Assembly (NCBI GenBank): GCA_008632985.1
Contig: QPGO01000010.1
Span: 248,001-312,000, forward strand
From: Psammoneis japonica
Lineage: Eukaryota
Direction: 5' to 3'
Length of the DNA stretch: 64,000 nucleotides
Position 1 is the first letter of the stretch. Every line of letters begins with the position of its first letter. Under the pieces are notes generated by a model, which saw nothing but the letters and a program-made list of their open reading frames with translations, ran no database searches and was not told where the DNA came from. The position numbers and the translations under genes are program-made. Of the stretch, positions 12,183 through 64,000 are shown piece by piece.

Positions 12183-15100
12183 GGTTCATAGAGTGTTTGT
12201 CTTGCTCTGAAACAATCATAGCATCAACAATGAAAGAACAGCAACAGCAAGCGCAGTAGCGCAGTGTCCTTTGCCCCCACATATACGTAGAACCTACGTG
12301 GCGCCTGGTACAAAAAGGAAAGAAGGTAAGGTATTTTCTATCGATCAGTCTGTCCTGTCTTCGGTCCACGTCAGGGCAGAGGCTCAGAAGATGGCTGGCT
12401 GGAGCGACTGCGATGGCACCGGCAAGTGGGCCGGCAGTCGGTTTCAGCAGTGATTTGTCGAGTGTGAGCTTTGCACCTGCTGGTGATGGCTGGCTCACCT
12501 TCTTTTTCCTGCCAAGCCAAGACACTTTTTTTGCAGCCCAGCTGAAGTCTGCCAGTCTCTCTGCTGATGGCAGCTGTGCTGGTGATGCCTTCTCCATGGA
12601 CTCTGTCTCTGAAGCAACTGACAAAGTGGTGTGGATCATGTGAACAGCAACACGGAGTGTGCGGCACACAGACAACTGCCTCCCTCCCCCCCAAACTGAC
12701 AAGAAGGTGGTGCAAATCACATGAAGAACAGCATGTTGCACACAGGCAACTGCGCCCCAAGAAATGCACATGAGGTGCTCCCTGCCCCTGCTTCGTGGAG
12801 TCATTTTTCTTTTTTGTTTCAGGGAAGTTGTGCGCGCCCTTTTCCCATGCTGCTCTTTTGGCTGTGGTGTGCACGAACAAAATGTGGTGTGCAACAGCAA
12901 TGGCATTTTGCAACAAGTGGTGTTTGAGGGAGCTTTGCACCAGCCATCTGGCAGTTTCTGTCATGTCATGGATCAATGCTGAGATTTGCCAAGAGAAGGG
13001 TTTGCTGTTGTCATGCTTGCAAAATTGTGTGTTTGTGCTCCTTTCATCTCACAGCAAGAGGAGGTGGCACAAAAAGAGCATCAGAGCATGGTGTGGGACA
13101 TGTGCACACTGCTGCTCAACTGGCCCTCTAATTCCCACCTTCAAAGATGGGGCAGAATGAGCCATCTTGCCAGATCAATGGCAACCTTGGGTGCGTGTGT
13201 TCCCAAGTGCTCCCCCATGGACAAAATGGAGAGAGAGAGAGAGAGAGAGAGAGCTCAGTTGACAACTTCAAATCACCTGTCCCTTGCCCCTTGGATCGTT
13301 TTTACACAACAGCTCACCACACCTCACCACACGTTAACAACAGCAGCCGACCCTCCAATTCTTCTCCAACAACAAAAATTGAAACAAGTCTGAACCCTTT
13401 TTCAACAGTCTGTTGCAATTGCCAACCAATGCAGCAGGTGGTTTTTCCAAAGATTGGTTTCTCTGAAGCTTTCTCTGCCAACACTTCAACAACAAAAGAA
13501 CAAACTGCTGTTGCAAGAATTCCGTGGTTTCTTCCACTCCATGCAAGCACTTGTCAACAAACTTGACCCAATCATTGACACGTCTTCCTGAGCAGCACTT
13601 TGGATGAGCTTGGACATCATTCCCCACACCATCAACAAGGGAAGCCACCTCTGTTGCACAGCCATGTGATGTTCAAGGTGTCAGGTCTTCTTCATCCTGT
13701 TGCTTGACATGGGTGCTCAGCAACACAGCTGGCTTCAACTCCTGCACCCATCTCCAAGAACCCCTCCAGGGGTGAGCACACTCTGTTTCTTCCATTGTGT
13801 CATGGCAGGACTCCTGAGAACCTTGCAAGCCAGATCTTGAAAAACCACTGGAGCTCCTTGTCAGCACTTTGCTCTCATTTCTGCTTGTTGGTCATGCCTG
13901 GTTCTCAAACAGACCAAATGCTTCCACCCCAATTACTGAGAGCAACTTTTCCTGAAGATTGTTTGCTCATTGGTTTGTGAAGAAAGTTGTTGCTTCTGAC
14001 CTTGGTGTGGTGTGGCCAAGGACTTGTGGCTGCTTTCTTTTCAACCAGTTTTGCAGTTTTTGGGAGGTCCATGCATGGAAATTGGGTGTGGGGCAAGTGC
14101 TTTGCATTCTCCAGTCTATGAAAATTCCAGCCATCATTGTCACAGAGATTTTTGACATCTTCTTCTGTTTCTTGCTCATTTGTGTGTGTGGTGCAGTCTG
14201 TGCTGCAACAGTGCTTTGACCGCTGGCTGCTTCAACAGCTTTGGAGGCCAATTTTTTGCACTCTTCCCTCTCAGCTGCACTGTTGCTGGCATTCCAGCGT
14301 CCAGCATTGTCTTGCTTTGTTTGTGCACAAAATGACAGCGTCATCTTGAAAACCTGCACTCAGTTGCCAACAGCCAGTTGCTTGACATTGCCACATTTTG
14401 CCCACAACAAATCCTGGAATTCTTTGTTGGCTTTGAACGTCTTGGCGGCTCTTTGTGACACTTCTCACATTGGTTTTTTTAGTGTGTCTGTGAACCTCAT
14501 TTTGTTGCTGGTCCTGTCCTGAGGATGACAGAAATGTGGAAATGGGCTCCATTGTTTTCCATGATGCTGCCAGCAGTGTGGAGCTGCAAGCACAGGTTTT
14601 CCCATCTGCAACATTGCTGTGAGGTCAAACTGACAAGAGCTTTTCTTGGGCAGATTTCACATTGTTTTCACCACTGTGTGACATGGAGCTGGCCCTGATC
14701 TTTTGGGCTTCCCCCCTGCTGCTGCACACAGAGTGACCCCCCAGCACTGTGCACTTCAGTCAGTTTGTCAGAAGCAGAGCTGTTTGCTTCTCTGGTGCTT
14801 TGACAGCAAAAAGAAATTGGTGCTGACTCAGGGGCAGTTCCATTTTGCAAAGGATCTCAAAATGTTGATTTTTGACTTTGCTGCTGGGTCAAGAGGCTTC
14901 CTTGCACCTGGCTTGTGACAAACAAACTTGGTTTCTCTGCTGCTTCTCAGCTTTTTTCTCTTGCACATCTTCAGCTGTAATGTGCTGGATCTGCCGCACA
15001 CAACCAAGATTCAGATTGAGCATCACAGCCACCCTGCTGCACAGCATCATGCTTTGCAACTCAAGAGCATGGTGTCAGGAGCAAGGCATGCCAACAAGTG

Positions 15101-18100
15101 TGATGGGCAGCAGCTGTGAAACAAACATGCCCCAGGGTTGAGCATCTGCAAATGCTCTCTTTTGCAAACACCCATTGCCTCTCCCAAGCATTTTGGCACT
15201 CTCTGTCTCTGCTCAGGGACGTCCTTCACTAGAGAGCCACCATTGCCAGCAGATTTTTCTCCCCATTTTTTCTTCCTCTGGCACTTCAGCAACTTGATGG
15301 GACCACCAAGCTGGCTGAGAGTCAACAGGTGCATTTGAAAGAGCCTTCTGGGGAAGCTTGTTTTCAGCACCTGAGTTTTTGCCATCATCTTCTTTGCTGA
15401 TTTTGTCAATCATTTGTTGTGCAGGCTCTCATTGCGGGGTTTAAGTCTCTTCAACCCTTCTGGGATCTTTTCCACAAGGCAGGCTGCATTGTTCTCATGA
15501 TTGTCCCACCAGAGCCACACCAGAGCACACAATCTAAAACAATGAACATGCTGATGACTCTGCACTCCCAATGCAATCTTTTCCTCAACAAGATGTGTGC
15601 TCTGTTTGTTGTCTCCTCACCCCTCAATCAATGTTTTTCTTGTTCTTTTGCCATTCAATCTAGATTTCTGAACACCCCACTCTTGTGAAAAATTTTCTGC
15701 TTTGTCTTCACCAGTGGCTTGCACACCAACAATGGAACAACATCAAACATGTGCCCTGCATGCCACCCAAGGCCTCACCTGAGGGTGGGGGGAGCAGCCA
15801 GGAAGCTTTGTGTGGCTGCATTTCACACTGAAAATCCAAAGCTCTGTGCATCTCACATGTGCTTGCCAACCAAGTCAAGCTTCCACCAAAGAGTGTTTTG
15901 GCCCCACAGAGACATGTGTTTTCATTCCAGGGGAGAAACATTTGGACAAATCATGAGATTTTCTGTGTGTTCCCACATTGCACACACTCAGTGCCAAATC
16001 TGTGAAAGTTTGTTGAGCTTCAAAGCCCAGACATGTTTTTTTCATGTCTCCAGCCAGAAGTTCTTGTGGGTGCACACCAAGAAAATGGTGCCATGTGACT
16101 GCAACAAAACCACCTGTTCTTGCACCAATGGCTGTCATGTCAAAGAAGGTGCAGAACTGAGGCTGGTCAATGACAAGGCTGCAATCAATGTGGTGGTTGG
16201 TGTGTGTCTGAAATTTTGATTTTTGCATTTGTTGTGTTCTGTGGACATTTTTTGACTCATGAAGGTGTTTTTGATGTGCCTCTTTTTCTCAGCCTCAAAT
16301 TGTGACACAGGATTCTCCACAATGCCACCTGGCTCTGTTGACTTTGCACTGAACTCCTCCAAGCAATGAGAACAATGAATGGCTGGCACTTTGCACAATG
16401 AGCAGATCCAAGCCAAGGAAATGAGCAACAAAAAATCAGGCAAAAGTCCACCAGATTTGCTCCCACAAACCACATGGTGGCAGAAGAACATGGACAGATG
16501 ATGGGCTGTGCTCTCCCATGCCAGAGCTGCAGCAGCAGTGATTCACAGAAAACATGCCACCCACACAGTGACCACTTTTTCCCCTTTTTTGTCATTGTGC
16601 ACCACCAGCACAATTTGTTTCATTCAGCGTGCAGCAATGACCATGGGTGCACTTCAATCACTGTCTTAGAGACTGGTGCATGTTTGCTCTTCGGCTTTCA
16701 GTTTTCTTCTGTTTTTGTGCTGTTTTGCTGTCATGTTGGTGAGCATGCAATGGCAACAGAGAAAAGAGAACAGATGTGCAAGAGCAAGGATGAGAGGAAG
16801 AGAGCAAGGCCTTTCTTCACCTTTTCACTTGCTCTGTGCCACATCTTTTTGGGTGTTGGGTGACACAGTGTTGCAAGTCATTTCCAGCCCTCTTCAATCA
16901 AGAAAAAGAGTCCACCACTTCCACTGCTGTTCAAAACAAGAGGAAATGGGTGGCTGTGGGCTGTGCTGAGAGTCCACCCACCCCAGACATTGATTTTTGT
17001 TCAAGTGTTGTCCAGCCAAAGATTGTCACAGCAGGGTGCATTGGGTCAATGAGTGATGGCACAAGAGGTGGTGGTGACAGTGCACATGCTTGGGAGCAAT
17101 GTGCTTTTGTGTGGTGGCAAGTTTTGTGATTGCTCTTGAGGCACTCTCATGTTGCACAAACAACACAAAGGTTCACCATCTCAAGGTTTGGGGCAGGAGG
17201 AATCTTGTTGGCACTTGTGGTGGCCTCCCATCCAAGAATCAACAAAGTGTGCTGCTGCTGCAGCAACAGCTTGAGTGTTGCCCAGAGTGAGGTGTCTGTG
17301 AGGTTTTGGAGCAACACAGTGAGTTTTGTGGGGTTGCAAAAAAGCAAAAAGAAGTGCAGTGGCTGGTTTCCAGCTCCTCTCAAACAGCGCCAATGTTCTT
17401 GTGAGGCTGGCAGACTCCCACTCATTGCCAATTTGCCTGGCCAATCAATCATCACTGTCATTTGCAGGTGCTGCCTTTTGGCAAGAGAGTGGAGTTCAAA
17501 ACTGTGTGTGTGAGCTCTGCTGTGGCAACAAACCCAGTTAAAAAACATGCTTTTTCCCAGCTGTCTGTCTCAAGCTGGCATTGCAATGTGCACTCATTGG
17601 CACCTTTGAGTCAAAGCTGCATTTTCAATGGTGTTGATCTGAGCAGCAACTTCTTAGAGTGACCAGCTTGCAGTGGAGCCATGCCACAGGCCCTCACATG
17701 GTTGCTTTTGCACTCAGTCATCATTGTCCTGGTGTCATTTGAGCCACTCCAGGACAAAATGGAGCTTGTGCCACTGGCTTGTGTGCTGGACTCCTGACAA
17801 CCAAGCTGGTGGCTTTTCCCTTCAGCTTGCAAATCACTTTCATGGTTTTCATGCTGATCGCAGCTGCCATGTCAAATGTCAATTGGCTCCATTCTGCTGC
17901 CACTGTTCAAAACCACTGCATCAGAGGAATGGCACTGGCACCATCTTGGGCCATTTGCAGGGATGCTTCTCCAAAGAAAATCTTCCAGAGAGGATGACTC
18001 CTGCCATGATGCCAAACATGACTGTTGCAAGGGTGACATGGCCACCCAACAGGGCAGATGGACCCCCATCATCTCTCCACTGCCACCACCACTTCTTGGT

Positions 18101-20290
18101 GGTCTTGAAGAAGTTGCAGCTTTCCTGAGATGTGAGGTTGAACATGCAGAACACCTGCTCCTTCAAACTTGCAACACAGGCCCTCTCCATTTGTCAAATG
18201 TGAGTCAGAGAAACAAAGCCAGCTGAACAATCATGCAAACTGAGTGCCAATGTGGCTCTAAATGTGGTTTCTGCATGCCATGAGAGCAGAATTTTTCAGC
18301 TTTGTTTGCTGCCCATCAAGTTTGGGGCAGAAAGCAGAAACTGAACACTTCTGTGTGCACATTGATTTGCTGAAATGACAAGTTCAAAATCTTTAAAAGA
18401 AAAAGTGTCAGTGAGAGATGGCACAACTGACACTTGTCACTCAGAGGACAAACCTTGGCTTGCATGGCCATTCAGTGCAAAGATGCATCATGCACTGATG
18501 GTGCATGCATGGTCATCTTTGAAGTGCCCACCACCTGAGGACAACACAGGTGTCAACTCCCCTGCTGACAACAAAACAAAGGTGGTGCAACAGAGTGCAA
18601 GAGTGAAGTTGGAGCATGAGGCACAACTTTTGAAAAGATCTCACAAAGACAAATGGCTTGCCTCTGCTGCTGTGCAAGAGAGCCACTCCCAGGCAGGGTG
18701 CCAGAGATTGGTGTGTGAGGGAGCCCAGCTTCAAAACACAATGTCATCTAAGACAAGCAGTCTGCTGCACCTTCCCATGACTTTTGCATCATCAGTGCAG
18801 AGCTGGCTGCACTCAAGCAACAACAGTGCTTTTTGCTCATGCACAAGACTGGCCAGAACTTTCCCTTGTGCCCTGACTCAGTGCACTGTGCTTGACAAGC
18901 ATGAGCAAAAGTCTGTCACCCAAAAAAGTTGCCAAGGAGCTGCAGGCTTCTTTGTGGATTTGGAAACTCACCAGGGTGCAAAGCACCAAGCTGCCAGAAA
19001 GCACATGTGCTCCATGAGTTGCAGTCAGCTGTCGCCCAAAAGAGCCAGAGGATGAACACTTGCAGGGCAAAAAAATGGATGAGAGAGTGTGCAAGCATGC
19101 AGCTGGTGCTCACATTTTCAGTTGCTTTGTGCTCCTGGCACCTTTTTTGCTGACTTTGCAGTTGACTGGTTGGCTGTGACAGCAGCACATCAAATGACTG
19201 GGTGGAGCAAGATGTTGTTTGTCTTGCCTCAAAATCCCATGTCAAGCAGATTTGCCAGTTTCCAATCGCCTCCAATTCCAGGCTTGCCCAAGCCCTTGGC
19301 AAAGTCCATTCCTTGAAAATGCCTTTTAATGCTGTCAATTTGACCATGGACTTGAAGAAATTCTTTTGCAGTCATGCTCCAACCTTCGTTTGTGTGGGAA
19401 TTGAGTTCAAATCCTTCATGACCATTGTGAGCCAAATCAAGTCTTTCATTGCCAAAGCTCTCAAACACTTGTGCATGACCTCCAACATGAATGTCTGTAG
19501 AAAGCTTTTGCTTGAGCTTGACAACATGAGCTCCAGTCCCTGGCTTTGGCTGCAGCAATCTTCAAGCTCCTGCTTTCAAACTTTTTGAGCCCGGGGAACA
19601 TGCCAATGCCTCGTGCATGTGTGCATCAAAGCAATGACAAAAGAGGCTGCATCAAGGAACTTGTTCGTCTTGGCTCAAAATCCCAGGTCAAGTGGATTCA
19701 CCAGTTTCCAATTGCTTCCAATTCCAGACTTGACCATTTCCATCCAGCCTTTCCACTCCTTGAGGCACCCCCCATGGCGAACCTCATGTTGCAAAGAAGA
19801 CAATGGAGAAGAGTTGGGCAACCCAGTTGAAGAACATTTTGGCAAACAAAAATTTCATCCCAAGCAGAGCAAGACAAGAAAGCAATTGACAAGCTGACCA
19901 ACCTCATTGGATGCATGCAAATTGCAGCTGCACAACTGGAGGGGAACTGATTCTCAGTGGTGGGGCTGTCAGCAAAAAAAAAAAGGACGTTCAGCAGAAA
20001 AAAATGACTCAGGAACTGACCAAAGAAAAATTGAACAACCAAAGATTTGACTGCCATGATGGCATGACAGCTCCACCTCCAAATGAAACAGCTGAACCAA
20101 GCACCACTTTCTCAGAAGAATGACCCCAGCTGCATTTGTGCTTCACAGTTTCCTCAAAAACTCCAATGGAAAGGAGCAAAGAGGCTTCTGTCATGAAACA
20201 GCCCACCAAACTTGTGATGGCAAGAGTTGATTGTTGAGTCATGCAGCGTTGAAATTCAACAGCCCGTGCGCTCACTCTTGTGTCTGTCCA

Positions 20291-20540
20291 GGCCCATTTT
20301 GCTTTTCCATTGATCACTGTTTTCCCATTTGTGGTCAGGGAACCATCTTGACTGGCACAGTGTCAAACAGATCGACCGCCGTCAATGAAATGCTGGAATT
20401 CCCCACCTTGGGTTTGGAGGAGCCAAAATCAAGTCCATGCAATTGTTTCATCGCAAGGTGACAGTCATTTCACAGGGTGATCATGCAGGCATTTGCATGC
20501 CAATTTTGATTCCAAGCTTTTGGAACATGGTGTTGTGGGA
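20291..20540 (+). pseudogene. EEFSEC: Relic of selenocysteine-specific elongation factor (eEFSec/SelB) domain II
   Basis: Read across frameshifts: FSIDHCFPICGQGTILTGTV...LEFPTLGL..KIKSMQLFHRKVTVISQGDHAGICM.NFDSKLLEHGVV. Matches the eEFSec pattern VDHCF.IKGQGTV.TGT...KVKSMQMF...QGDR.GICV..FD.KLLERGLV. Confidence 0.85.
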
Positions 20541-23439
20541 GATCTGTCTGCTCTTGCTGCCACGTTCACAGAAGAGCAACTTTGCCACATTGGAATGGCG
20601 AAAATGTCAAACTGGGAGCTTGACAAAGTGGAGCGGTGTGCTGCACTTCAGCAGGAATGTCTCTCTCAAGGAAGAAAAGTGTCTGTTGCAAATGGACTCT
20701 TTGTGGGATTCATCAGCCCACCAAACTTGTCATTTCCTCAAAGATTGCAAACCTTGTGGCTGTCATGGAGCAGCTGATGCATGCTCCATGATGTGTCCAG
20801 CCTTCCCATGCCCAAACACCAGAAAGAGGCCATCAAGTGAGAGCCAAACAGATCTGGCAGAAACTCCTGCAAAAAGGCCAAGCAAACAAAATGGATGTGT
20901 TGACTGCCCTTTTAGCACAAACAATGATTTGAATTTGCACAATTCTCTGCATCAGGCTGCTCACCTTGAGGACTCAGTTTTGAGCAGCATCCAAATGTTG
21001 GATGCAGGAATTGAACAAAGATCATTTGCACTGCTGATGATGCACTGTGAGAACACATTGAGAACTGGAAAAAACAAAAAAAGACACAACAGCACACATT
21101 CACAATCCCATGCTGTGCCGTGCATTCCTCCTCATTCCTCAACAAAATGCAAGCTGAACAATCCACAAGTCAATGTGCTGGAAGATTGTCAACAACACAA
21201 GAAACTCAGAAGGATGGAGCGCTGCCAGCCAGCGCAACACTGTGTCAACTTTCATCACATCTGCAGCAGTGCCAGCTGCTGGAAGCTTGTTGGAGGATGA
21301 TGCAAGGCTCCCCAAGTCCCACAGCAAGCATCAACAATGATGCAACAAGCAGAGAATGTTGACAAGTTGACAAAATCACAGACTTGAGCCCACCTCCAGA
21401 TGCAATGGCACTTGAGATGCAGTTGCACAAGCTGCTGGCTTGCTCTACAAAAAAACCAACTTTTGCTTTTCATGAAAAGAAGAGGAGAACAAAACAACCC
21501 GCCCATCATGACAAAACATGCCAAACAGAATGTTGCAGTCAACATCAAAGTCAGAAGGCTTTCTCCATCAATGATCCAAGAATGTTGCCAAACCTGGGCC
21601 CTCATGTCATTTGGTTAGATCCATTGTTGCCTTTGGCCCACATTCATGATTCCAACAGAATCATTGTCATCATGACTGATGAAGGAGGCAACCATGGTTG
21701 GAGTCAATTCCAGTTGCTGTTTGTCAAATCATGTGAGAGCAATGATCAGGCTCAAGAAGCAACTGGCAACTTGTCTGGCAAGTCACAGTCAATTTGCACA
21801 TTGGAGTGGTTGCATTTCATTCCAAACTGGCACCACTTGCCCAACCCATTTCTTCTTCCTTTTCTTCTTGTTGCCTTTTGTTCGACTGGAACTTGGCAAC
21901 GACTCTTTAGATTCATCATTTGCTTCTGCACTTGAAGGTTGAGCAGATCTGCAGTTTGAAGCAACATGCGACAACATTTCATTGTTCAGCACACAAGAGA
22001 CAACAGTGCATGATTTGGCAATGGATTGGTTTCTTCTTGAAGTTCTTCTCCTTTTCAAACAGCCTTGTTCAGGGAGTCAGCATGGGCAGAAAGGCTCCAC
22101 AACTCTGTTCCATCATTTCCACCCACAGCAATCCAAGCCAAGTCACACCCCAGGTGCAAGGATGCAAAACCGTCCAGAATGATTTTGTGCTCTTTGTCCA
22201 TGGATTGCACCCAGATGGTTTCCGAAGCAAACTCCACACAAGTGCTGTCCCATCCCCCCCAACCAAGATGCTGCACCTTGAGCCATGCAGCAGCTCCACA
22301 CCATTTGGGTGGTGTGGCCTGATCCAGCCCACATCAACTTGTTGTTGTTGTTGTTGTTGTTGTTGTTGCTCTGTTCATTTCCACAGTTGTGCCACCCACA
22401 ATCATCTGAGGTCAGAGCTGCACACATTCTGCACTGAGTTGCTTCAACAGAGTGAACAACACCTTCATGACCTTTCAAAATGCAGTTGACTGCTTTGCAT
22501 TGCACAGGAGGATTGGTGCATCACTTCAGCCACTGTTTCTTCCGTGCTGCTGCTGGCAGTCTACAGCAGCATCTCATTTTCAACCGTCTCACCTGCCATG
22601 AACAAATCATCTGCAAAGGAATGATGGAGTGATGCACAGAGCATGTGGCACATCTCTTGGAACAGACTGTTCTTTTGACGGACACAATTTTGCAGCAGGC
22701 CTCTTGATTTTCAATCTGGAACATGTCATCAGCCACATTGTGAGCCATGGCAGCACCATTGTCAAGCCCTTGTTTCCACTGTTGCCACAAAGATTTGCAC
22801 CCCAAATCCAACCAGCAAAACAGCAAGAACAGACTGTGAAATGAGTCATCTGGCACAACAAGACACAAAGCAGCAAACCTCCTCTGCTTGTTTTTGGCAC
22901 TTGTCCCATTTAAATGAGTGCCACTGCTGCCCCCAAAACAGCCAAAACACAAACATTGCATCATCATTGGACAAATCATCTTCCTGCCCAAATCCAATGC
23001 CATGAATCATCCCTCCATTTAAAAAGCAAGCTCTGCCCAAAGCTGTTCACTCATTCTGACAAAGCAAGCAGCACAGCAGGTTGGGGGTCTTGTGCAGCAA
23101 GCAAAAGTCCACTCTCTCCATTTCAAAAGAACACAAGTGTGATGGACTGCTTTTCAAGAAAATGGTGATTTAGCAACAATGGCTCGAGCTTGTCCAGAGC
23201 TTTCTTCAGAACTGGCAACAGCACCAATCATGTTGAGAGGATTGTTCTTTGTTCTTTCGGCCTTGGCACTTCATCATCATTGCTCATTTTTGCCTCACAT
23301 TTCACACTTTTTGTGATGGAAAGCATGATGGCCATTTGCAATGAAGCAGGGTCAAAAGGTGACAATGACGACAGTTGTGAGAGCAGCAAAAACAACAACA
23401 GCAACAACAAACCCATCATCAACACAACACTCAAGAGGC

Positions 23440-23770
23440 AGAGCATTTGACAGTTGACCACAGCAGACCTGACAATGCACAAGAAGACCATCGCATTGAA
23501 AAAGCTGGTGGGTTTTGCATCAAGGGATGCATCCTTGGCATGCTGGCCATCAGCCAATCCTTGGGCAATCAAGTTCTCAAGCTGTTTGTCATTGGCGAGC
23601 CACGCATCTGCAAACGAAGAGCAGCAGCAGCAGCAACAACAATGCAGTCAGCAGCAGCAGCACCAGTGGAGGTCATCATTTCTCAGCTTCTCATTGTGAC
23701 ATGCAACGGTCTCTGGGATGCCATGTCAGATCAAGAAGCGCGGTCGATCTTGTTGTTGCTTTTCAAGGTG
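23440..23770 (+). pseudogene. Relic of a PP2C (PPM) protein phosphatase C-terminal half
   Basis: LTVDH.RPD...RIEKAGG..KGCILGMLAISQSLGN...EP...LIVTCNGLWDAMSDQEA, versus consensus LT.DH.P...RIE.AGG...GR..G.LA.SRSLGD...LI.ACDGLWDV.SDQEA. Confidence 0.85.
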
Positions 23771-24272
23771 ACAAAAGGAGATCGCACAAGCGCTGGTCAA
23801 GGAAGCTCTTCATCGCAGAACTGAAACAATTTGACAGTCATGGTCTCTTGGCCACAGTTGTTTCTTCGTGCAACACTCACAAAGATGTCATGAGTGAAAC
23901 AGTTCCTTGCCTGACATTCGCGATTGCAGCGCATGACAAAGCTGCAGTTCCACACCAATGTGGCCAACTGACAAATTCTTGCAGACACCAATGCTGACTT
24001 CTTGTTGTGTTTCCCATTCGTCTGTGACTTGTGCTGGCAGGCGGTCGAAACATGAATGTGCAAGGCAGTGGCAGCAGGGACAGTGTCAAAGCTGACAGCA
24101 CTCGGGAAGCGTCCGCGTTTGTCGCACTTCAACTTCATTCGTACTCCGTTTTGCGTCTTGCACGTCTGGACGCCCCGAGGCTGATGGTGTCGAGTGTCGA
24201 CGCTCCTCTCATAAAAAAGTACTGTATTAAAAAATACCTATCGACAGGAGCGCATCTTGACAGTGAACAATC

Positions 24273-25088
24273 ATGAATGCATCAAAACCGAAGAAAGAGC
24301 CTTCATCCACTCTGTTTAACCCCGATTTGCAGAAGGGTGAAAGGAAAGCGAAGAAAAAACTACTCAAAGCCGAGCGCAAAGCATTCCGTCTCCGCGACGA
24401 AGCAGCGGAGGCTGCCACGGTGAACAAGCTCAACGAAAGTATACAGAGAGTCGACTATCTTGCGATTCTCGACTTTGAAGCGACCTGTGACGACACTGTC
24501 AAGTTTGATGTTCAGGAAATCATTGAGTTCCCTACAGTCTTTGTGTCGACAGCTACAGGAGAGGTCGATTTTGTATTCCACACCTATGTCCAACCACAGA
24601 AACACCCGACGTTGACGGCATTCTGTACCAAGCTGACCGGAATCCAGCAGCAAGCGGTCGACGGGGGCATTTCGTTGCCAGAAGCTTTGAAATCGCATGA
24701 GGCTTTTCTGGTCGAGCAAGGGCTTGTTCCAGCGGCAAATGTGATGGACGAAGAACATGGCAACAAGGAGAGCAAAACCTTTGTATACGTGACCTGCGGT
24801 GACTGGGATCTCAGAACGTGCTTGCCTGCGCAGTTGCAGCATCTTCCCATTGCATGCCCACGGCCATTGAAAAGCTGGTGTAACCTCAAGGTTGTATTCC
24901 AACAAGTCTATGGCGTCAAGGCAAAAGGCATGACCTCGATGCTGGACCACTTGAAACTCGAGCTGGAAGGGAAACACCATTCGGGAATTGACGATTGCAA
25001 GAACTTGGCACGCATCGTGAAGGAAATGCTATTGAATGGCGGTTGGAAGCCTCATCGTGGCATAATCACAGGAACAGCATTGCGTTAG
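24273..25088 (+). CDS. ERI1-family 3'-5' exoribonuclease (DEDDh)
   Basis: Motifs ILDFEATC, EIIEFP, FHTYVQP..HPTLTAFCTKLTGIQQ, TCGDWDL, LEGKHHSGIDDCKN. Intact and intronless. Confidence 0.93.
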   Translation: MNASKPKKEPSSTLFNPDLQKGERKAKKKLLKAERKAFRLRDEAAEAATVNKLNESIQRVDYLAILDFEATCDDTVKFDVQEIIEFPTVFVSTATGEVDFVFHTYVQPQKHPTLTAFCTKLTGIQQQAVDGGISLPEALKSHEAFLVEQGLVPAANVMDEEHGNKESKTFVYVTCGDWDLRTCLPAQLQHLPIACPRPLKSWCNLKVVFQQVYGVKAKGMTSMLDHLKLELEGKHHSGIDDCKNLARIVKEMLLNGGWKPHRGIITGTALR

Positions 25089-25404
25089 GTTGCAAGAAGT
25101 TATAACATTATCACTACTCTAAATCTTAAGGATCACTGGGACGATAGTCGTTCCTACCGCTGATGACGTCCGCAAACGCCAGTGCCACGCACCTCCCGTC
25201 GAAGTAGAGAGCCCGTGGTAGTGTCTGCAACTTCTTTTCACATTCGCCACGCACCTTTTGGTGAAAACGGATGCCCCCCGTCCTTGCGCTGCTCCAGAGC
25301 TTCGCCCCTGTTGTTTCCGACTCTTCAACAAATAAAACTACTGCTTCTCACTGTGCTTTGTATCTTGCGCCAACTTTGGGGCTCTTTGTGTAATTGTTCT
25401 TACC

Positions 25405-28385
25405 AATCACACGAATGGTGATTCCAAGCGCTTCCAAATGCTGGTGGTGTGTGGGATCCAGCTTGTTCAACCGCCACAACTCCTTTTGCCGTGGCACACA
25501 CGCAGCGAGGGCGGCGGACCCCTTGTCATCCCGTTGGTTCTTTTGACTTTTTCAACACTGCCCATCTCATCATGAAACTCCTTCCATTGCTTGTGTTTGG
25601 CTTCCCATCTCTTTTCATCAAGATCGCATTGGACTCCAGGTGTGGCGACAAAGCTGATGCTCTCCAAGAGGTTGAGCTGGTCCTTGCGCAAAAACTGGTG
25701 ATGGCGACGTTGATTGGCCAGCCACCAGGCCAGCCACTCAGCCAAGTGGGGAAAATTGTGGGATCATGGACAACAGGGCAAAGAGTGGATCTAATCCTTG
25801 CATCCTTTTCAATGGTCCACAGTTAAAAAATGAATTCAACCTCCTTTTGTTCACATGCTTGTGTGTCGTCGGAGGACATGTGGGGAAAGGGATGAGTGAA
25901 GAGAGGCTTCTGCTTTGCGGGTGTGTGCCAACTGCTGAGAGACTGGAGACACAGAGACTTTTTCTGTTGCACACCACAAATTTGCACAAACATCTAACCT
26001 GCAAAGCATGTTGTGTGCTCAATCATGTCACAATTGCCAAAACAAACCCAACCTCACATCAACTTGATGCTGAGTTGCAGTGAATGCTGCTTCCTTCTTC
26101 AAGGTGACCCACCTTCCAACTGTTGAACCATTTGCATCCTACAAACTTTTTGAACGCGTGTGCTTCTTGGACAAAAGCTCTTGCTCTTTCTCATTCTCTA
26201 AAAGAGCAACCAACAGCAACAACAGCCACAAGTGACTGCCCCAAATGATGACTTTCTCAATTTTTCAAAGATGTGGCATTTTCTCCAAAGAAATGAGCAC
26301 ACTGCTTGTCAGAGCGCAGCCTTGGAGAGATGACTGCGATGACACATGACACGGCCATCATCACCGTCACATGTCTTGAAAGCACAGAGCATTGAAAAGC
26401 TCAGTGAAAGCCCCTGCCATGATTCTTCTACTGTCTTCCTCTCTGATGCAGATGACAACATTGCCCAAACCCCACATCAAGCAAAAAACTTTTGACACAG
26501 AATGAGAATTTGTTGTGGAAGTGGCAAGCCATCCCAAAAAGTCTGACACACCCCATCACTCTCAACAACAAAAAGAGCACACAACAATGGCAAGTGTGAT
26601 GGTGAGAAGCAACACACATTGTGGGAGAGGAAAAGACCTCTCATGCAGAGACCAGCCAGAAATTGGGTGGCCATTTTTTTTACGATGAGCTTTCTTGGTC
26701 CGAGCTCTTTGACACATGCTTTCTTGGTCTGAGCTCTGTGACACATCTGACATGATGAGAAAAGCAGCAACAAGAACAACACAACAAAACATCACCAGAT
26801 CCACATGATGCTGAAGGCAGTGAAAACACCAACAAGCTGACATTTTGTGGGAAGAAAAGACTTTGTGCACATGGCAGAGTTGAAAAATCAAGCCAAGAAT
26901 GCCTTGATGACATGTGATGATCTCCTGGCAGGCCAGCTCCAGGCTCACAAGTCCATGCAATCTCATGATCTCAATGACTCATCTGTCTGGAGCCAAGGAT
27001 GAGGACAGCTGTGCTTCCAAATCACCTCCTCCAAGCAGTGCGGGTGACAGTGATGATGACAATGAAGTTCTTTGTCAAGGGAGCAATGGGTGACTTTTGC
27101 CTGCACAGTTGCGATGAAAAATCAATCCAGGGAGATGATGATGAGAGTTCATGGCCCAGCCTTTGTGATCTGCAATTGCCTCTTAAGATGTGGACATGCA
27201 TGAGAGCAACAATGCCTTGAACTCACCTGGTTTGTGTGATGCTGACTCTGATGCTGACAACAAGAAAGGCTGCAGGAAAGCAGAGCCATAGATGGCTCAA
27301 TTGCCAAACACTCCAAAGTGACCAAGGAGGTTGGCACAACACCAAATTCTTGCACAGAACAGTCCTGCAGGCACTCAGACAGAAATGCAAGCCTCCTCAA
27401 AAACACAGCACCATGTCATGAGACTCATTTGCACGCTCTGATGGTGCCTGCATGCAGATCATACTTTCTTGTTGGGTTGTTGCAAACAATGTTGCACACA
27501 TGCAAATTTTCAGTTTGTCAAGATTTGCCAGATCTGTGTGGGACCATCCTGAGCTGCACTGTCAATGGAGCAAAGATCAGCTGGTGTTCAACCCACCCAC
27601 CATGCCAGGCCTGCACGTGCTCCTGTTGTGGGTGGTTGCAGCACAAATTGTCAATGAGCAGCTGGTTGAGAACACCTCTCAGTTCCCAACAAAGCTGTCA
27701 AAATCAAACTTGTCACAAAAGGCATCTCACACGACCAAGCCAGCACACATCAGAAGTGTGCCTTTGGCTCGTGGACCCCCCCAACTTGTTTGTCACAAAG
27801 TCTTCTTTGCAGTTTTTTGGAAGTTTTTTGTCTTCCTTGGAGCAAAGTGTGGAGGCATTGATGAACTGTGTCTTGGCTCATCATTGCTGCAACAACAGGT
27901 TTTTGCCATGGTGATCTCCTGCTGTGGGGCTTCCCACTTGAGCTGTCTCTTGTTGTTTGTTGGAGGCAGCAGGACAGCAGAGTTGTGGATTCTCTTTTGT
28001 TGCCAGAGGCAGAAAAAAGCAACCCATGCCTGCAGCTGGTGCATGGTCCATTCTTGCTTCCCCCCTGTCACTGGGTGGCAAGTTGTCACAGCATGCACCC
28101 TCTCAGAGCAGCATTCCTCTGGGACATTGTGCCCACTGCCATCAGACCACCACATGTGGGGTGGCCATCCCCAAATGCCCAGCACAAAAGCACAGCATTG
28201 CTGCTGCTGCTGCTGCTGCTGGCAACACACAGAACATGACAGCCGATGCTCTTTGCCAATTGAAAGATCCAAAAAAAGACATCCAAGATCAGCGAAAAAA
28301 AGTTGAAAAAGCGGTGAGTCGGGATCACGATCCAAACTGAACGCGAAGCGCGCATTGGACAATCACCTGAATGCTGCACTCCAGC
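25405..28385. other. TpA- and CpG-depleted hypermutated block 2
   Basis: TA nearly absent, TG/CA rich, Tyr-free Cys/His/Gln-rich spurious ORFs. Normal composition returns at about 28386. Confidence 0.92.
25545..25745 (-). pseudogene. Relic of a helicase-associated (HA) repeat protein
   Basis: WLANQRRHHQFLRKDQLNLLESISFV...RWEAKHKQWKEFHDEMG resembles the HA repeat WV..QR..Y..L...R...LESIGFVW...W...Y..L..F....G. Confidence 0.7.
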
Positions 28386-43532: not shown

Positions 43533-43734
43533 CCTTGAATTAATGATAGTACGGTTGCACTCTAAAGAGCATAGACGTGACAAACATCCGGTACTCAAAG
43601 GAGAACAATAAACGAAGCCGTCCTCCTTGTCATTCATCACTCCAGTTCCTATATTGTTGCCTTGTGTAGTGGCACAGAAGTATTTTCGATGTGCCGGTGT
43701 CCTTTGCGGTTTTTTACCCAATTTATTTTGTTAC

Positions 43735-44936: not shown

Positions 44937-45539
44937 CTAAAAGTTTACCACTCGTTTCTTCTTTCGTTTCTTGACCATCGTATCATCGCCATTTTTTTCT
45001 CCAGAAACGTCTTCCACTGCAGCAGTCTCGTCGCGCTCCAGCAAATCTTGTACAGGCGTGTCATCCAACGATTTATCCGCCTTGTCTGTCTTGTTTTTGT
45101 TTCTCTCGGGACAATCGGTAGCACGATGCATTTTGGAGCCACACTCGCGACATTCCCCGCCATGGACATAAATTCCTTTTGTATTTGTCGGGCACGCCGA
45201 GGCCAAATGTCCCTTGTTGTGGCATAAGTAGCAAGTCGCAAACGGCAAATCGGTAAAGGTTTGGTTCGAAGCCTTGTGTTTTGGGCAGTTGTGCAGCGAG
45301 TGCTCCGTCGAGCCACACTTGAAACACACCACAGTGTCAGCGGCTTGTCGATGATGGTTCTTCTCTTGCTGCGGACAATCAGCAGCCACATGTCCGACAC
45401 TGCGACAAACAAAACACGTCAACCTCGAATGCTTCTCTCGTTGAATCTTGGAATGTCGGCGTTGACGAGCTAACTGCGTGTACTTTGCACGACGTTCCTC
45501 CTTCGTTAGTTTGGGCTTCGTTGTTTTCTTTGCTTTCAT
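44937..45539 (-). CDS. CCHC zinc-knuckle protein (ZCCHC9/AIR1-like), 4 knuckles
   Basis: CFVCRSVGHVAADC, CFKCGSTEHSLHNC, CYLCHNKGHLASAC, CRECGSKMHRATDC. KGIY..GG linker; C-terminal KKKRVVNF. Confidence 0.88.
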   Translation of the reverse strand: MKAKKTTKPKLTKEERRAKYTQLARQRRHSKIQREKHSRLTCFVCRSVGHVAADCPQQEKNHHRQAADTVVCFKCGSTEHSLHNCPKHKASNQTFTDLPFATCYLCHNKGHLASACPTNTKGIYVHGGECRECGSKMHRATDCPERNKNKTDKADKSLDDTPVQDLLERDETAAVEDVSGEKNGDDTMVKKRKKKRVVNF

Positions 45540-45619
45540 CCTGTCTGTTACAATGCTTTGTAGATGCACGTAGCCGTATTGACTTCTCAGTTTCCTAACA
45601 AGAGCAGGCAAAAGTGATA

Positions 45620-47900
45620 AAGCGAAGACGAATGAAAGACGAGTGGTGGTGGCTGCGATGGTGGAGGGAACTTTCGGTCGTGTTGGTGGTTGGTGGCGGA
45701 AAACAGTGCCTCATGACCTGATTGTCCTCACAGAATTCTGTGGTGAGCAACGACGACCTCCCGACGCATCTCTCTTGCATGTGCAGAAAGAGGTTGTCAG
45801 TTTCTTAGACTTGAGCTTCAACTTTGCAAATGGCTGGGAGTTTTGTCTCTTTGTGGAACACAAGTTTGTCTGAAACTGGATCCCATGAATGAGTTGCAGA
45901 GTTGAGCGGTGTTGTTGGCACACCTGCTTGTTGTTCTCTCCAAGCACTGCCAACAAAGTGGCGAGTTGGTCGCACTCACAAATGCCCTGTCAGGTGGTGG
46001 GGCATCAGATGACAAAGAAGAGGAACCCAACTCCAACAAGGAGGAGGCTTCTTAAGCTGCAGCATCTGCCTCCAGGGCCATGACATCTGCGGGTCGTTGC
46101 TTGGAAAATGCTGGCTCCGCCCATTTGCTTGTGCACCTCTGAGCTGATGAAGTGCTCGCAGTGTGCAAAGTTCTCCAAGCAAACTCAGAGTGCAGAGGTG
46201 CTGGTGCAGCTGGCAGAGGGGACAGGATTCCTTTGTGCATGATTCCTCGTGGTCCACATTGACCAAATGCAAATGCCTCCGATTGGTCGACACCTCTTGA
46301 AGTGCCCCTGTCAAAAAGACGCTCAATTTTCTTTGTTTTGCTGTGAAACCAGCTCCAGAGAAAAAGACTCATTCACACACAACACCAGAAGGTTGTTTTT
46401 GATTGGCATGTGTTTGAACTTGTTTGCTGCACTTCAACAGCAAACAAGGTGTGCTTGGTTCTCGTCAAGTCGCTCCCCAGCCCAACTGAGTGCAGATGAG
46501 ACAAAGCAGAAAGTTGACAATGCCTCCATCACAAATGCCCACAAGAGCAACCCCAGCCACCATGAATGTTTGAACCAGCTCATCCTCAGCATTGTCATGG
46601 TTGGATTGCTCCTTTGCTCCTTTGTCAGCTTCCATGTCATTCTTCTTTTGTTGTTGCAGAAATCATCTTTTGAGAAGCTTCGCAAGCATTTCACAAGTTG
46701 TGCTGTCCATGTCATGTCCAGTGTTTTGGAGCTTTTTGTGCACAACATCACATCCATGCTTGTCATGTGGTCCTCATTGTGCCTTGGTCTTGTTGGCTGA
46801 TGGTTCTGGGACATGCAGCGCAGCTGTCAGAACTCCCTGAACAAATCAGGAAAGTCCAGAGTCTTGAAGGTCTCCACTTGCATGATCAGTTTGGCACAAT
46901 CAGCTCCAAAATGGTGAAGAGCAAATTCTCCTTCCTCATGAGAGGGTGCAACTCTTGCTGTCTGTGCAGATGAGCAACTCACACACAGTGCCAGACTCTG
47001 CCGTTTGACTTTGAGGCCAGCGCACTCAAAATTGTCAGCAAGATCCAGTGGTGCCATGGCATGATCTTTGACTGAGAAAAGTTCATCCACTGGGAAATCT
47101 GCATGGAATGAATTGCAGAAAATGATGGAGGATGGGTGGCTCAACTCCTTCAATCTCAGTCGGCGGATCATTTTCTTGCTCGATTTGCAGCCAAGATTCT
47201 GGCAAAACCAGGAGCTCAATTTGCCAGAGTCACCTTGCACACCTCAAATGTTTTTCCTCCAACAGACAAGGTCACATGACAGCACTTTTGTGAAGTGCAG
47301 GTGTTTGACACATCATTCTGGAGCACGCTGCTGCTGCTGCTGCTGCTGCTGAAGGGAGGTGCCAGATCTGGGTGAGCAGCAGTTGGAAGAAGAATCTTCC
47401 AATGAACAAGACACCAAGATCCCCATTTTCTGAGAATGACCCAAAAGGATTGGGGTTCAAAATGAAGGGCCTTGGAAATTCCCAAACACTTTTGGCATCA
47501 CGTGCCTTGCAGATGCTCTGGTGCGCAGGAGCATGAGAGTTGTTCGGTGTCTTGTTGCCCCCCTGCAAAACAACCAAAATGATGAGACTTTCACTTGAAC
47601 TGAATCACCCCACTTGTCAGTGCACTCCAAAAAGATCAACACCTTGGTTGTGCTTTCATCAGAAATGATTTGCCCACGTGGGTGCAGCGGCAATGCCCAC
47701 ACAAGAAATGTCGACGATGGCAGGGAAGCGATGCTGGGCTGCGGACGAGGGAAGCTCTCCAGTCCATGATGTTTCTGATTGAGATTGTCAAAATCCTGAA
47801 ATGCAAAGCTGATAACTGGGAGTTTTGCAGCAGGCAATTTGTCCCCAACCCCCAACAATGACAGAAACTTTGATAAATTCATTCATGTCATTTGTTCCTT
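45620..47900. other. TpA- and CpG-depleted hypermutated block 4
   Basis: Very few TA in about 2.2 kb (for example cttaga 45805, cttaag 46051). TG/CA rich, with a (TGC)n microsatellite. Confidence 0.9.
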
Positions 47901-51434: not shown

Positions 51435-52470
51435 ACGTTGTTTCTTTTTCATGTCGATGTCTTTCTACTTCAGCAAAGCGCACGTGTTGGCCGCCTTCAT
51501 GGCGGTGCAAATGCTTCCATTGGGAACGAGCAGCGGGTGAGTCCAATCTTTGAAGGTCCAGCACGCAAGCCGCACCACCCCCTGAGCAGTGCATTGTTGA
51601 CCCTTTTCTATTTCCAGTCACAGACTCCGCAGAAAAGTGGCAACAATCATTGAGGAATGGAAGGATGTTCCTCGCGAGCTGGGCCTGAGATGGGTCAACC
51701 CACTCCAATGCATCGACTCGCAACTGCAACAAGGACAACGTCTTCTTCCCGGTCAAGGCATCTGCTGGGGAAACAAATCCAACAATGAGGATCATGAGAA
51801 TCCAGCTTCAGGAGCTTGTGAGTTTGGCCTCAATGAAGATGGATCGCTTGTTTGTTCTGACCACTGCAGCCATGATCCAGATGGATCGCTCGTTTGTTTG
51901 GACCGCCACAACCATGATCCAGAAGTCATTGTTTGTGAACATGGTGCCATTGCAGGAGAGGTGTTGCTGTTGACAGAAGAGGGCAAGCTTGTCAACAGTG
52001 AGGATGATGGTGTTTGGCAGGCAGGTGGTTGCAACGGCACAGCCAAAAGCAAACCAACATTGGAGAGGGGGGCAAGGTGGAGCTTGAGCATGGCAAGCAC
52101 GGTCACCAACGAGCATGACCAGCATCCTTTTCAGAGGTGGCATTTCCACACCATTGCCAGCTAAAACTTGTGCGTTTTTCTGTCAGGAGCATTCGTGTTG
52201 GTGATTTCAGCCTGATGAGGAAGTTCATTTGCATGCTGCACCGAGGGCAGACTCACAAAATAAAAATCAGGGTGAACTGCAATTTCAAATTGTGCAATTG
52301 AAGCTTTGTTGCCTTCCTTTGCACAAGTGAACAGACCATGTGGCATTTTCACTGCATGTCAGTCAGTGTGACACTGTTTCAAGAGAAGAGCAAAATCTCG
52401 TCCTCACAACATCTGACAGCAACCGAGTGAGTTGCACGACTTGTCAAGAGAGAGAAAGAATGGTGTGGCA
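51435..52470. other. TpA-depleted block 5 (CpG largely retained)
   Basis: 0 TA and 13 CG counted in 51661-52140. Confidence 0.85.
51700..52080 (+). pseudogene. Relic of a bulb-type-lectin-like gene
   Basis: LQQGQRLLPGQGIC...GACEFGLNEDGSLVC...GEVLLLTEEGKLV...VWQAGGCNG parallels the neighbouring intact paralogs (GQALYPTEYLG...GGYRFGLDENGRLGY...GDYLKL...LWASDC.G). Confidence 0.65.
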
Positions 52471-57760: not shown

Positions 57761-57964
57761 GCACCAATAGCATGACAATTAAAGGCACAACGCGTATGAG
57801 AAAGACGTAGCACACTGTCGCCTCATCAGATACATCAAAATGCACAACCTCATGGTATTGCGTTTTGACAGACAGGGAAGGCGGGGCAAGAAGAACTCCG
57901 CAAACTCGATCAGACGATTCTTCTGCACGGCCGTTCCACAGGATTTTAAAAACCGTATAGACTA

Positions 57965-62374: not shown

Positions 62375-64000
62375 ATGCATGCTTCATGAAAAAAAAAAAA
62401 ACAAGAAACAGCCATTCAGTGCAAGTGAAGCGTGCAATTGCATTGATGTTGACGTGTGTGTGTGTGTGATTTATTTCTGTTGTTGCAGTGAAAAGTGTGC
62501 AAAATGCTGCTGTGAGTTGAGCATCGTCCCACGCTCGACTCATCAAAGCTCTGCCTGGCAAGGAGGTGTGGAGAGTGGAGGCACACACAGGCAGAAAGCA
62601 GAAGCTGATCCAGATTCAATCACAAACAAGAAAATCACAAGCGCAAAAAGCATCAATGCACCACAGGACAATTGATGCTTGTCCAACAAAAAGCGGAGAA
62701 GACCCAAATGTGTGGGAGCGAGGCAGCTCGCTGTGAGCAGCCCCCCCCCCCCCCCCCCCCCTTGGAAACATCACTTGCACAAGATGGTGCGTTGAACGAC
62801 ATGCGCAATTTGCAGCAGATTGTGCCCCATTGTTGGCAAAACATCAGGTGCTCTTTGGCCCTTGTTGTGACAAAGCATGGGCTGCAGAGATGCCAGCAAG
62901 AACATCCTGCTGTTGCTGAGAGCAGGCACACTGGCATGACTGCATGTCAGCTGCAAGTGAGCCTCGTGCATGTCAAAAACATCAAGCACTCAACTGCCCC
63001 CCAAATCATGCCCAGTGAGCAAACACTTTTGCTGCACAACATTGTGCGCTGTGAATGCAGCACCTGCACAAAGCTCTCTTTGTTTGTGAATGAAAATTCC
63101 TGGCGTGTGCACCCGAAGTGAGCCCACACAACTCATGTGACAAAACACTGTGCAGCAAAGTGTGAGCAGCAAAATCTTGGTCTCAGCCTCTGCCTTTGCC
63201 ATTTTTTGCAACCAAAGCTTCTGCTCAGCTTTGTGTGCCCCTGGGCATTTGGCTTTTTAAGACACACTGCCTTGCACAGCACCAATGGAGCAGCAATGGC
63301 AACTGGGCCTCTGCAATCAAACTTGCAGGCATGATGGAATCTGGCAAACAAATGAGCCATGCAGCTGTCTGCCTGAGAGCCACTGCCCTGCAAAATGCAC
63401 TCATGCACTGACAGCACTCCAAGCCAGCACCACCCAAAATGTTGCTTCTCTTAGAAACATTGCAGCAAGTGCAATTTGCACAAAATTGTCATTTTTTGTT
63501 CTCAACAACAGCTGCAAGTTGTGCATCAAAAGAGCAAAACACACAATGATGAAAGTGGGGCTCCTTTCTTTACAAAGTGAGGGGCAAGTGACACACTTTT
63601 TGAAGAGAAGAAGCACAAAAGCATGATGGCTGCCTGGCTGATGAATCATGTGCTTCTCTGTTTCTTTCATGTTCCCAACAAGCAGCTGCAACAAGGTTGT
63701 TGATGAAAACCAAACAGAGATGGGGGTGGACATGGCCCCAGCCAGGGCACCATGTTTCAAGCTGTGTGGTGGGCAGGGAAGGTGGGAAAAAGGGAAGAAC
63801 TTGGGGGCAACATTTCAAAAAAGGGGGGAAGTCATGTTTCATCTGGTGCAAGATGAAGGTCTTGGTTCCTTGGCACAAGCATGCTGGAGCATTGCACCAT
63901 TGAAATGCTGGCTGATGCAACATGCTCTTGCACTTGTTGCAGCAGGAGCACCCCCACTCCCTGGTGCATCCCAACAAAGGTTTTCCACATTTTTTCTGGG
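62375..64000. other. TpA- and CpG-depleted hypermutated block 6 (runs off the window end)
   Basis: TA-rich sequence at 62200-62300 gives way abruptly to sequence with almost no TA and enriched TG/CA. Confidence 0.92.

Follow-up and report, generated by a model that had tools for sequence, protein, structure and literature searches.

Six blocks within a 64,000-nucleotide (nt) stretch of contig QPGO01000010.1 (positions 248,001 to 312,000) of the Psammoneis japonica assembly GCA_008632985.1, here called the window, have lost almost every TpA dinucleotide. These blocks are probably the product of a near-saturated DNA hypermutation that converts TpA to TpG or CpA, is restricted to chromatin domains and is of the same kind as that described in the chlorarachniophyte Bigelowiella natans, here acting in a diatom-like genome.

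In the six blocks as delimited by the original prediction (23,911 nt together), 71 TA (observed/expected ratio [o/e] 0.04) and 321 CG (o/e 0.24) remain, and CA (2711; o/e 1.78) and TG (2588; o/e 1.77) are in large excess. The other 40,089 nt of the window hold 1640 TA (o/e 0.60), 2284 CG (o/e 1.01), 2889 CA (o/e 1.13), and 2782 TG (o/e 1.14). With TG and CA so similar in number, the block signature is strand-symmetric. In a 500-nt profile, the six stretches have TA o/e of 0.00 to 0.12, sustained over up to 11.8 kb, CG o/e mostly of 0.00 to 0.5, and TG+CA o/e of 1.5 to 2.0, against background values of about 0.6, 1.0, and 1.1, respectively. GC content (0.44 to 0.51) is unchanged in the blocks. 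Block coordinates were set by a two-state hidden Markov model (HMM) using TA positions alone, and the resulting TpA-poor blocks sum to 23,540 nt, or 37% of the window:

12341-24140: block 1 (11.8 kb), with 2.3 TA, 7.6 CG, and 226 TG+CA per kb
25421-28380: block 2
32261-36260: block 3
45621-47800: block 4, with 2 TA in 2180 nt
51481-52460: block 5, with 3 TA in 980 nt
62381-64000: block 6, which continues past the end of the window

Every block has step-shaped edges. The 250 nt before 12341, at the left edge of block 1, contain 13 TA and the next 790 nt none; at the right edge of block 2, the 926 nt before 28388 contain none and the next 250 nt contain 15. The original prediction, that the blocks almost lack TpA, are poor in CpG and rich in TG/CA, and end sharply, agrees with these counts, and the sliding-window profile of TpA, CpG, and TpG+CpA that it proposed, computed within the 64-kb window, recovered the same six blocks. 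Its tally of about 26 TpA in the 11.8-kb block is 27 on recount, and its figure of 10 at 301-420 is exact. Of the 11 HMM edges, 9 lie no more than 46 nt from its coordinates; its right edges for blocks 3 and 4 were too generous, as the HMM places them 180 and 100 nt further inside.

The purine/pyrimidine skeleton of the blocks is intact, and only transitions within YpR steps (Y, pyrimidine; R, purine) set them apart. YpR steps total 239.4/kb outside and 237.9/kb inside the blocks. Per kb in the blocks, TA is reduced by 38.0 and CG by 43.6, a combined loss of 81.6, and TG and CA are increased by 38.9 and 41.2, a combined gain of 80.1. The balance also holds when the steps are divided by their flanks, with class A comprising RCAR and YTGY, class B RTGR and YCAY, class D YCAR and YTGR, and the remaining class RCAY and RTGY. 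Classes A and B together, which have mixed flanks, gain 45.1/kb against losses of 20.0 for mixed TA and 24.0 for mixed CG (sum, 44.0); RCAY and RTGY gain 20.7/kb against losses of 12.0 for RTAY and 8.5 for RCGY; and class D gains 14.4/kb against a matching loss of 17.2/kb. This agreement, overall and class by class, indicates that the blocks record transitions at TpA and CpG. GC content is unchanged because each TA-to-TG/CA change adds one G:C pair and each CG-to-TG/CA change takes one away. A tetranucleotide decomposition by nonnegative least squares (R2 of 0.68, CG coefficient of 0) was uninformative, owing to ancestral context, and the flank-class balance was used in its place. The region-targeted change of TpA to TpG/CpA put forward in the original prediction is thus supported by mass balance at both levels and further by the step edges, contigs of a public run (X1), a second locus in a metagenome (L079), and the B. 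natans experiment.

Loss of TpA follows a flank rule. Among 69 TA in the blocks, 42 (61%) stand in YTAR, 25 in mixed flanks, and 2 (3%) in RTAY, compared with 313, 843, and 484 of the 1640 outside; had the survivors arisen de novo from block CA and TG, a YTAR share of only 23% would be expected. A kinetic model, additive per strand, in which the editing of one strand is independent of the other and its rate depends on the base 3' of the edited A fits all 10 symmetric classes, with fitted kt values of 2.69 for T, 2.22 for C, 1.00 for G, and 0.57 for A, and is strongly favored over a flank-blind model (likelihood ratio chi2 of 74.7, 3 degrees of freedom). Survival alone does not separate a rule set by the 3' base from one set by the 5' base, a distinction provided by the products of RTAR and YTAY. 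In the blocks, RCAR and YTGY exceed expectation by 691 sites and RTGR and YCAY by 387 (z of about 5.7), equivalent to gains per kb of 28.9 for class A and 16.2 for class B. Survivor bias and product asymmetry together indicate A-to-G change at 5'-TAY-3' or, equally, T-to-C change at 5'-RTA-3'. A runs test for strand-coordinated series of TG or CA gave z values of -2.39 to +0.32 in the blocks and -3.96 to -0.5 in normal DNA; the blocks are no more clustered than normal DNA, and so there is no sign of processive single-strand events.

Loss of CpG occupies a smaller territory than loss of TpA. CpG-poor cores, defined by an HMM on CG positions, are as follows:

12461-23580: core of block 1, 120 and 560 nt inside the TpA-poor edges
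25721-28240: core of block 2
32881-35000: core of block 3, 620 and 1260 nt inside the TpA-poor edges
45781-47660: core of block 4
62821-64000: core of block 6

All five cores lie strictly within TpA-poor domains, which extend 120 to 1260 nt beyond them, and block 5 (CG, 27.6/kb) has no core. The nesting and the coreless block imply that the two processes are separable: TpA loss reaches further or runs faster than CpG loss and is independent of it. CpG loss also shows little flank dependence, with survival of 22%, 31%, and 20% by flank class. In the core of block 1, CG o/e is 0.00 to 0.26 with a matching gain of TpG/CpA, as expected of methyl-CpG decay.

Direct traces of the CpG process are found in the single recognizable gene relic of the blocks, which lies in the CpG-normal right margin of block 1:

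23435-23785, plus strand: C-terminal third of a PP2C phosphatase, without any TA, in an open reading frame (ORF) at 23381-23821 (Pfam E value, 5.4e-14)

Aligned with 60 homologues, the relic deviates at 18 conserved columns, and 9 of the 18 deviations are explained by a single CpG-to-TpG/CpA transition (R to H, R to C, R to Q, four D to N, and two V to I), in line with the earlier proposal that CpG decay and TpA loss are superimposed. Invariant residues are among those changed (R50C, R59Q, and D109N). Searches with 10 homologues (tblastn) matched 23435-23785 only, with no trace of the N-terminal, upstream two-thirds, which would reach deeper into the core. From its sequence, the relic looks like a host-type gene engulfed by the island, with decay rising toward the core.

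Otherwise, the blocks are strikingly empty. They overlap 217 ORFs (76 of at least 110 amino acids and 141 of 62 to 109), and the PP2C fragment alone passed the Pfam cutoff, so that the earlier description of the blocks as holding only decayed gene relics is not borne out. One hint falls below threshold:

25470-25763, minus strand: helicase-associated (HA) domain, weak match (PF03457; E value of 5.4e-5 and 23.9 bits, below the 28.4-bit cutoff), at the left margin of block 2, where TA is absent and CpG normal

Pfam gave no match to a reverse transcriptase, an integrase, a transposase, or a capsid domain among the 217 ORFs. Comparison of the blocks with one another by blastn gave nothing beyond a 76-nt pair, and a search in a purine/pyrimidine alphabet, which sees through transitions, found no hidden long terminal repeats (LTRs), terminal inverted repeats, or duplicates and only one 72-nt pair. 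The possibility raised in the original prediction that the targeted DNA is duplicated therefore finds no support in these searches, apart from relatives of about 19.0 to 23.7 kb described below. No homologue was found for the ORF at 20389-21297, and the 348-amino-acid ORF at 32680-33723 (plus strand), inside block 3, had no Pfam match and no usable protein atlas match. Long empty ORFs are expected in the blocks, as TAA and TAG have gone and only TGA stops are left. Heavy decay could hide a foreign origin.

The erased state is reproduced in public data. Run X1 contains 75% of sampled words from 10001-20000, and its contigs, with a k-mer depth of about 50 to 60, are identical to the window at 2196 of 2197 positions in the neighboring gene. 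Among the X1 pieces listed, seven (9,618 nt) fall in blocks over all or part of their length. Their alignment to the window has 89 mismatches and 32 gaps (98.7% identity), compared with an expected difference of about 8% of positions if the blocks had normal TA and CG densities. At two of the listed differences (12965 and 13831), the window has TG/CA and the run has TA. Over 19006-23674, additional contigs align at 80 to 95% identity with many internal skips, some of the extra contigs coming from a second run, X2, and their loose ends are normal in TA and CG. It follows that this part of block 1 is a member of a multicopy family, and the normal composition of the loose ends indicates that less-mutated relatives of it exist elsewhere in the genome. 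Run X2 is RNA-like, as it skips a GT..AG intron, and covers the flanking genes; it does not cover 12336-19672 and 23675-28343, and no RNA data set was listed as containing this stretch, but neither observation is taken as evidence of silence.

A second occurrence was found in an unrelated contig. The protein of the Cys-loop channel gene adjoining block 1 was aligned with 26 relatives, which led to 80 metagenome loci (345 kb) that were scanned for the signature. At a strict threshold one of the 80 was flagged, locus L079, which belongs to a microbial-mat contig of 26.6 kb; with the threshold relaxed, L079 accounted for 24 of the 26 flagged windows among 1256. The other 79 loci (about 327 kb) gave no strict window and two isolated relaxed windows (in L033 and L075); the one at L075:2751-3250, a single 500-nt window with TA o/e of 0.14, TG+CA of 1.53, and normal CpG, is too short to call. 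The blocks of L079 (positions 1-17886) are as follows:

about 2101-4800: depleted in both TA and CG
7201-7800: zero TA over 600 nt, CpG close to normal (o/e of 0.5 to 0.7)
16501-17700: depleted in both TA and CG

The flank rule recurs in L079. Among its 62 surviving TA, 38 are in YTAR, 22 in mixed flanks, and 2 in RTAY; class A gains 19.0/kb and class B 9.5/kb; and the 3' base ranks C, T > G > A, compared with T, C > G > A in the window. The locus encodes Ras, a Cys-loop domain, and an MSS51/zf-MYND protein, and both named matches of the MSS51/zf-MYND ORF among the 35 listed are diatoms (Attheya and Seminavis). No sequence common to L079 and the window was found. L079 is an unrelated contig, diatom-like judged by its encoded proteins, and it bears the same signature.

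The original prediction held that no described system has this signature, a claim overtaken by a preprint on B. natans, the only literature found on it, with nothing found for diatoms. In B. natans mutation accumulation lines, an integrated nucleocytoplasmic large DNA virus (NCLDV) region and a region of virophage DNA received 231 of the 302 nuclear mutations. Of these 231, 230 were A to G or T to C, every such change was at TpA, and mutations arose there at about 6e-7 per site and generation, in some lines only (10.64898/2026.01.13.699255). The B. natans genome is also reported to contain 124 clusters depleted in TpA and enriched in CpA+TpG, and the authors (Mettrop et al.) propose an ADAT2-like enzyme and discuss deamination (10.64898/2026.01.13.699255). 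The likeness to the window is close: TpA changes to TpG/CpA on both strands in discrete regions, with long-term TpA depletion and CpA+TpG enrichment in clustered windows. The blocks (Rho of 0.04 and 1.78; TG and CA o/e of 1.77 to 1.78) pass the B. natans cluster thresholds (a Rho of no more than 0.43 for TpA and of no less than 1.52 for CpA+TpG) over many consecutive kb. The two cases also differ. The host is a chlorarachniophyte in one and a diatom-like stramenopile in the other; the NCLDV region has a Rho of 0.45, whereas the window is saturated at o/e 0.04; the B. natans targets are viral or virophage DNA, whereas the blocks have no detectable viral or transposon identity; and the B. natans rate was measured directly, whereas the process in the window is known from footprints alone. 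The nested CpG decay and the 3'-pyrimidine preference seen in the window are absent from the main text of the preprint, in which, supplements apart, the words "CpG," "flanking," "trinucleotide," and "diatom" do not occur.

Fungal repeat-induced point mutation (RIP) resembles the window process in its region-limited, near-saturating transitions, its sharp-edged islands with destroyed coding capacity, and its ability to leak into neighboring genes. The direction is opposite, as RIP changes C to T mainly at CpA, creates TpA, and lowers GC, whereas the blocks have hardly any TpA, twice the usual CpA, and an unaltered GC content. RIP also depends on sequence duplication and on a sexual phase; the searches of the blocks detected no repeats, and relatives elsewhere in the genome are seen only for about 19.0 to 23.7 kb. 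Methyl-CpG decay, as in vertebrates, plants, and diatom repeats, shares the change of CpG to TpG/CpA, the small flank dependence, and the silent islands, but it accounts for the cores and the CpG half only and cannot remove TpA. In Phaeodactylum, about 6% of the genome is reported to be methylated, and the mutation accumulation data as reported show an ordinary GC-to-AT bias and no such regions (PMC6604790). Among enzymes, TadA and ADAT2 (and TadA-derived adenine base editors) deaminate A preceded by U, and ADAT2 homologues have been reported to act on DNA, although natural TadA acts on RNA loops. Editing of A after U by the TadA family has a core mRNA consensus of UACG in Escherichia coli and Klebsiella pneumoniae and of UAMG in Streptococcus pyogenes (PMC11472039), and amphioxus and Trypanosoma ADAT2 act on A and/or C in DNA, as cited by 10.64898/2026.01.13.699255. 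APOBEC3 and ADAR offer a further parallel in deaminase-driven lethal mutagenesis of invading nucleic acids within a dinucleotide context, but they act on replication intermediates or RNA, are strand-asymmetric, and do not erase a dinucleotide from both strands of a chromosomal domain.

The following mechanism would account for the blocks. A silent chromatin domain would recruit an A-editing enzyme, most likely a TadA/ADAT-type adenine deaminase acting on DNA, which would edit A in 5'-TAY-3' about 3 to 4 times faster than in 5'-TAR-3', on either strand and with the strands hit independently. The inosine product would be copied as G, and TpA would vanish throughout the domain in a short evolutionary time. 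The islands take up the space between intact genes, ending no more than a few tens of bases short of them. In the cores, deamination of methylated CpG, which is slower and does not depend on flanks, would act as a second process. Together the two would remove every Tyr codon, every TAA and TAG stop, and most Arg CGN codons, as well as TATA-like and AATAAA-like signals, and the content of an island would be permanently disabled.

The main rival to adenine editing is thymine-directed chemistry, in which the regional process is the same but a TET/JBP-type dioxygenase or another thymine modification (5-hydroxymethyluracil or 5-formyluracil) acts at 5'-RTA-3' and mispairing with G yields T-to-C changes. 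The strand-symmetric signature fits it, and the flank rule reads equally well as RTA to RCA. 5-Formyluracil is mutagenic towards T-to-C changes, and the 5-hydroxymethyluracil of dinoflagellates favors TpA. We nevertheless consider this chemistry unlikely, as nothing in the analysis supports it specifically, the B. natans authors have an ADAT2-like candidate and discuss deamination (10.64898/2026.01.13.699255), and a U before the A is a native requirement of TadA-type enzymes (PMC11472039). It is less probable still that one bifunctional enzyme of the ADAT2 type, deaminating both A and C in DNA, makes the TpA and the CpG changes. The two changes share islands, both are transitions at self-complementary YpR steps, and the dual activity cited for amphioxus and Trypanosoma ADAT2 (10.64898/2026.01.13.699255) provides a precedent; but the domains differ, with cores nested 120 to 1260 nt inside and block 5 coreless, TpA loss depends strongly on flanks and CpG loss does not, and the regional mutations reported for B. 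natans (230 of 231 AT to GC) include almost no C-to-T change (10.64898/2026.01.13.699255).

Artefact, selection, and RNA editing are unlikely origins of the signature. In favor of a miscalling of modified bases (5-methylcytosine or modified T or A) in DNA with normal TA and CG, a possibility that the original prediction raised, restoring CpG would return the PP2C deviations to consensus, and the platforms of the window assembly and of X1 are not recorded. Such an artefact is very improbable in view of the depth and identity of the X1 contigs in the adjacent gene and in the blocks, the same flank-specific signature in the unrelated metagenome assembly, independent-strand kinetics and a class A over class B asymmetry that miscalling would not be expected to produce, and Illumina data showing that TpA mutations of this type are real in B. 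natans (10.64898/2026.01.13.699255). A composition that is intrinsic or selected, as in foreign or noncoding DNA that always avoided TA and CG, has a parallel in the joint suppression of CpG and UpA known in RNA viruses (PMC3829696). This explanation has very little to recommend it, given depletion as extreme as o/e 0.04, near-exact mass balance per class on an unchanged purine/pyrimidine skeleton, CpG-transition damage at invariant residues of a host-type PP2C pseudogene, and the lack of viral domains in the 217 block ORFs. It is scarcely credible that retroelement transcripts underwent ADAR-type hyperediting and were then reverse-transcribed and reinserted. ADAR prefers a 3' G, whereas the 3' preference in the blocks is T, C > G > A. 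ADAR does favor U before the edited A, as discussed in 10.64898/2026.01.13.699255, but the blocks, with nearly as many TG as CA, have no sense-strand bias, show no sign of reverse transcriptase, integrase, or LTRs even when reduced to purines and pyrimidines, include the relic of a cellular gene, and end in place at step edges.

Several points weigh against regional adenine editing of the B. natans type. The TadA consensus of UACG or UAMG covers T at position -1 and C at position +1 and not the equally fast T at +1, and editing of A and editing of T are indistinguishable by sequence alone. The polarity of the TpA change in this genome, from TA to TG/CA, is deduced from composition and analogy, with the ancestral blocks taken to have been similar in composition to the neighboring DNA, which is mostly coding. 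For the TTAA class, L079 has 17 sites observed against 10.4 expected, and this excess over the assumed ancestral composition makes the absolute rates soft. The PP2C relic shows no conserved TA-containing codon changed to TG/CA and so documents the CpG half only. Unlike the B. natans targets, the blocks yielded no viral, transposon, or repeat identity, and a role in defense is therefore putative. X1 differs from the window by about 1.3% in the blocks and at 1 of 2197 positions in the adjacent gene, a contrast that may reflect a second haplotype, strain divergence in unconstrained DNA, or continuing hypermutability. Finally, X1, whose sequencing platform is not recorded, may be the window assembly's own sample, so that X1 alone is not independent proof; the L079 contig is independent.

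The normal DNA of the window carries eukaryotic genes, with Pfam matches to histone H2A, RNase_T, EF-hand, SnoaL, and RWD/UPF0029. Two lie close to block edges:

10359-12185, minus strand: intact Cys-loop ligand-gated channel gene (Pfam), in normal DNA, with about 155 nt between its 5' end and the left edge of block 1
24267-25085, plus strand: RNase_T-type exonuclease ORF (Pfam E value, 3.1e-24), in the 1.28-kb normal island (TA, 31/kb; CG, 59/kb) between blocks 1 and 2

The channel gene has a 93-nt intron (11252-11344) that a run contig skips. The best named relatives of the channel, at 43 to 55% identity, are diatoms only (Triceratium, Seminavis, Odontella, Nitzschia, Pseudo-nitzschia, Thalassiosira, Stephanocyclus, Amphora, and Cyclotella); relatives in Chloropicon and Emiliania rank below them, and the homologue search returned no near-identical protein and no Bigelowiella entry. 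Judged by its encoded proteins, the window is diatom-like.

Other features of the normal DNA were as follows:

5720-8344, plus strand: 875-amino-acid ORF without a Pfam family, with local TA o/e down to 0.22 and normal CpG; it contains a 258-nt tandem repeat (7152-7667, 90% identity) and a 69-nt one (6508-6714)
8810-9187 and 9230-9615: diverged direct repeat (72% identity)
42021-43529, plus strand: normal composition, left of block 4, weak endonuclease/exonuclease/phosphatase match (E value, 2e-5)
43717-44305: tandem array of four copies of a unit of about 150 nt, 67 to 87% identical to the reference copy
44940-45710, minus strand: normal composition, just left of block 4, ORF with three zinc knuckles (zf-CCHC)

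Across 8810-9615, run contigs have alternative joints (a 423-nt skip and a 406-nt step back), and near this repeat they show several TA-to-CA/TG differences relative to the window, at 9428, 9454, 9692, and 10112. The ORFs at 42021-43529 and 44940-45710 may be retroelement-like or cellular.

To our knowledge, regional hypermutation as a genome defense was long known only as fungal RIP, which changes C to T; the first measurement of its A-to-G/T-to-C equivalent at TpA dates from 2026 and comes from a single alga. If the present reading is true, saturated footprints in diatom-like genomes would mean that the process is not a single-species curiosity, and its newly added properties would be the 3'-pyrimidine rule, independent action on the two strands, and separability from CpG decay. 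The base-editing field, too, would have an interest in a natural DNA adenine editor that is symmetric between the two strands, and islands nearly without TAA and TAG could mislead gene prediction through long spurious ORFs. Diatoms are major primary producers of the ocean, and genetic tools exist for some species. More tentatively, diatoms and a chlorarachniophyte might share a TpA-specific silencing system that edits DNA by the 5'-TAY-3' rule, is either ancient or acquired more than once in marine protists, marks entire chromatin domains, and spreads from a methylated core into host genes such as that for PP2C, faster than and independently of CpG decay. Two distant lineages would then carry the system, and the enzyme could be sought among deaminase or dioxygenase genes common to carriers and absent from noncarriers such as Phaeodactylum.

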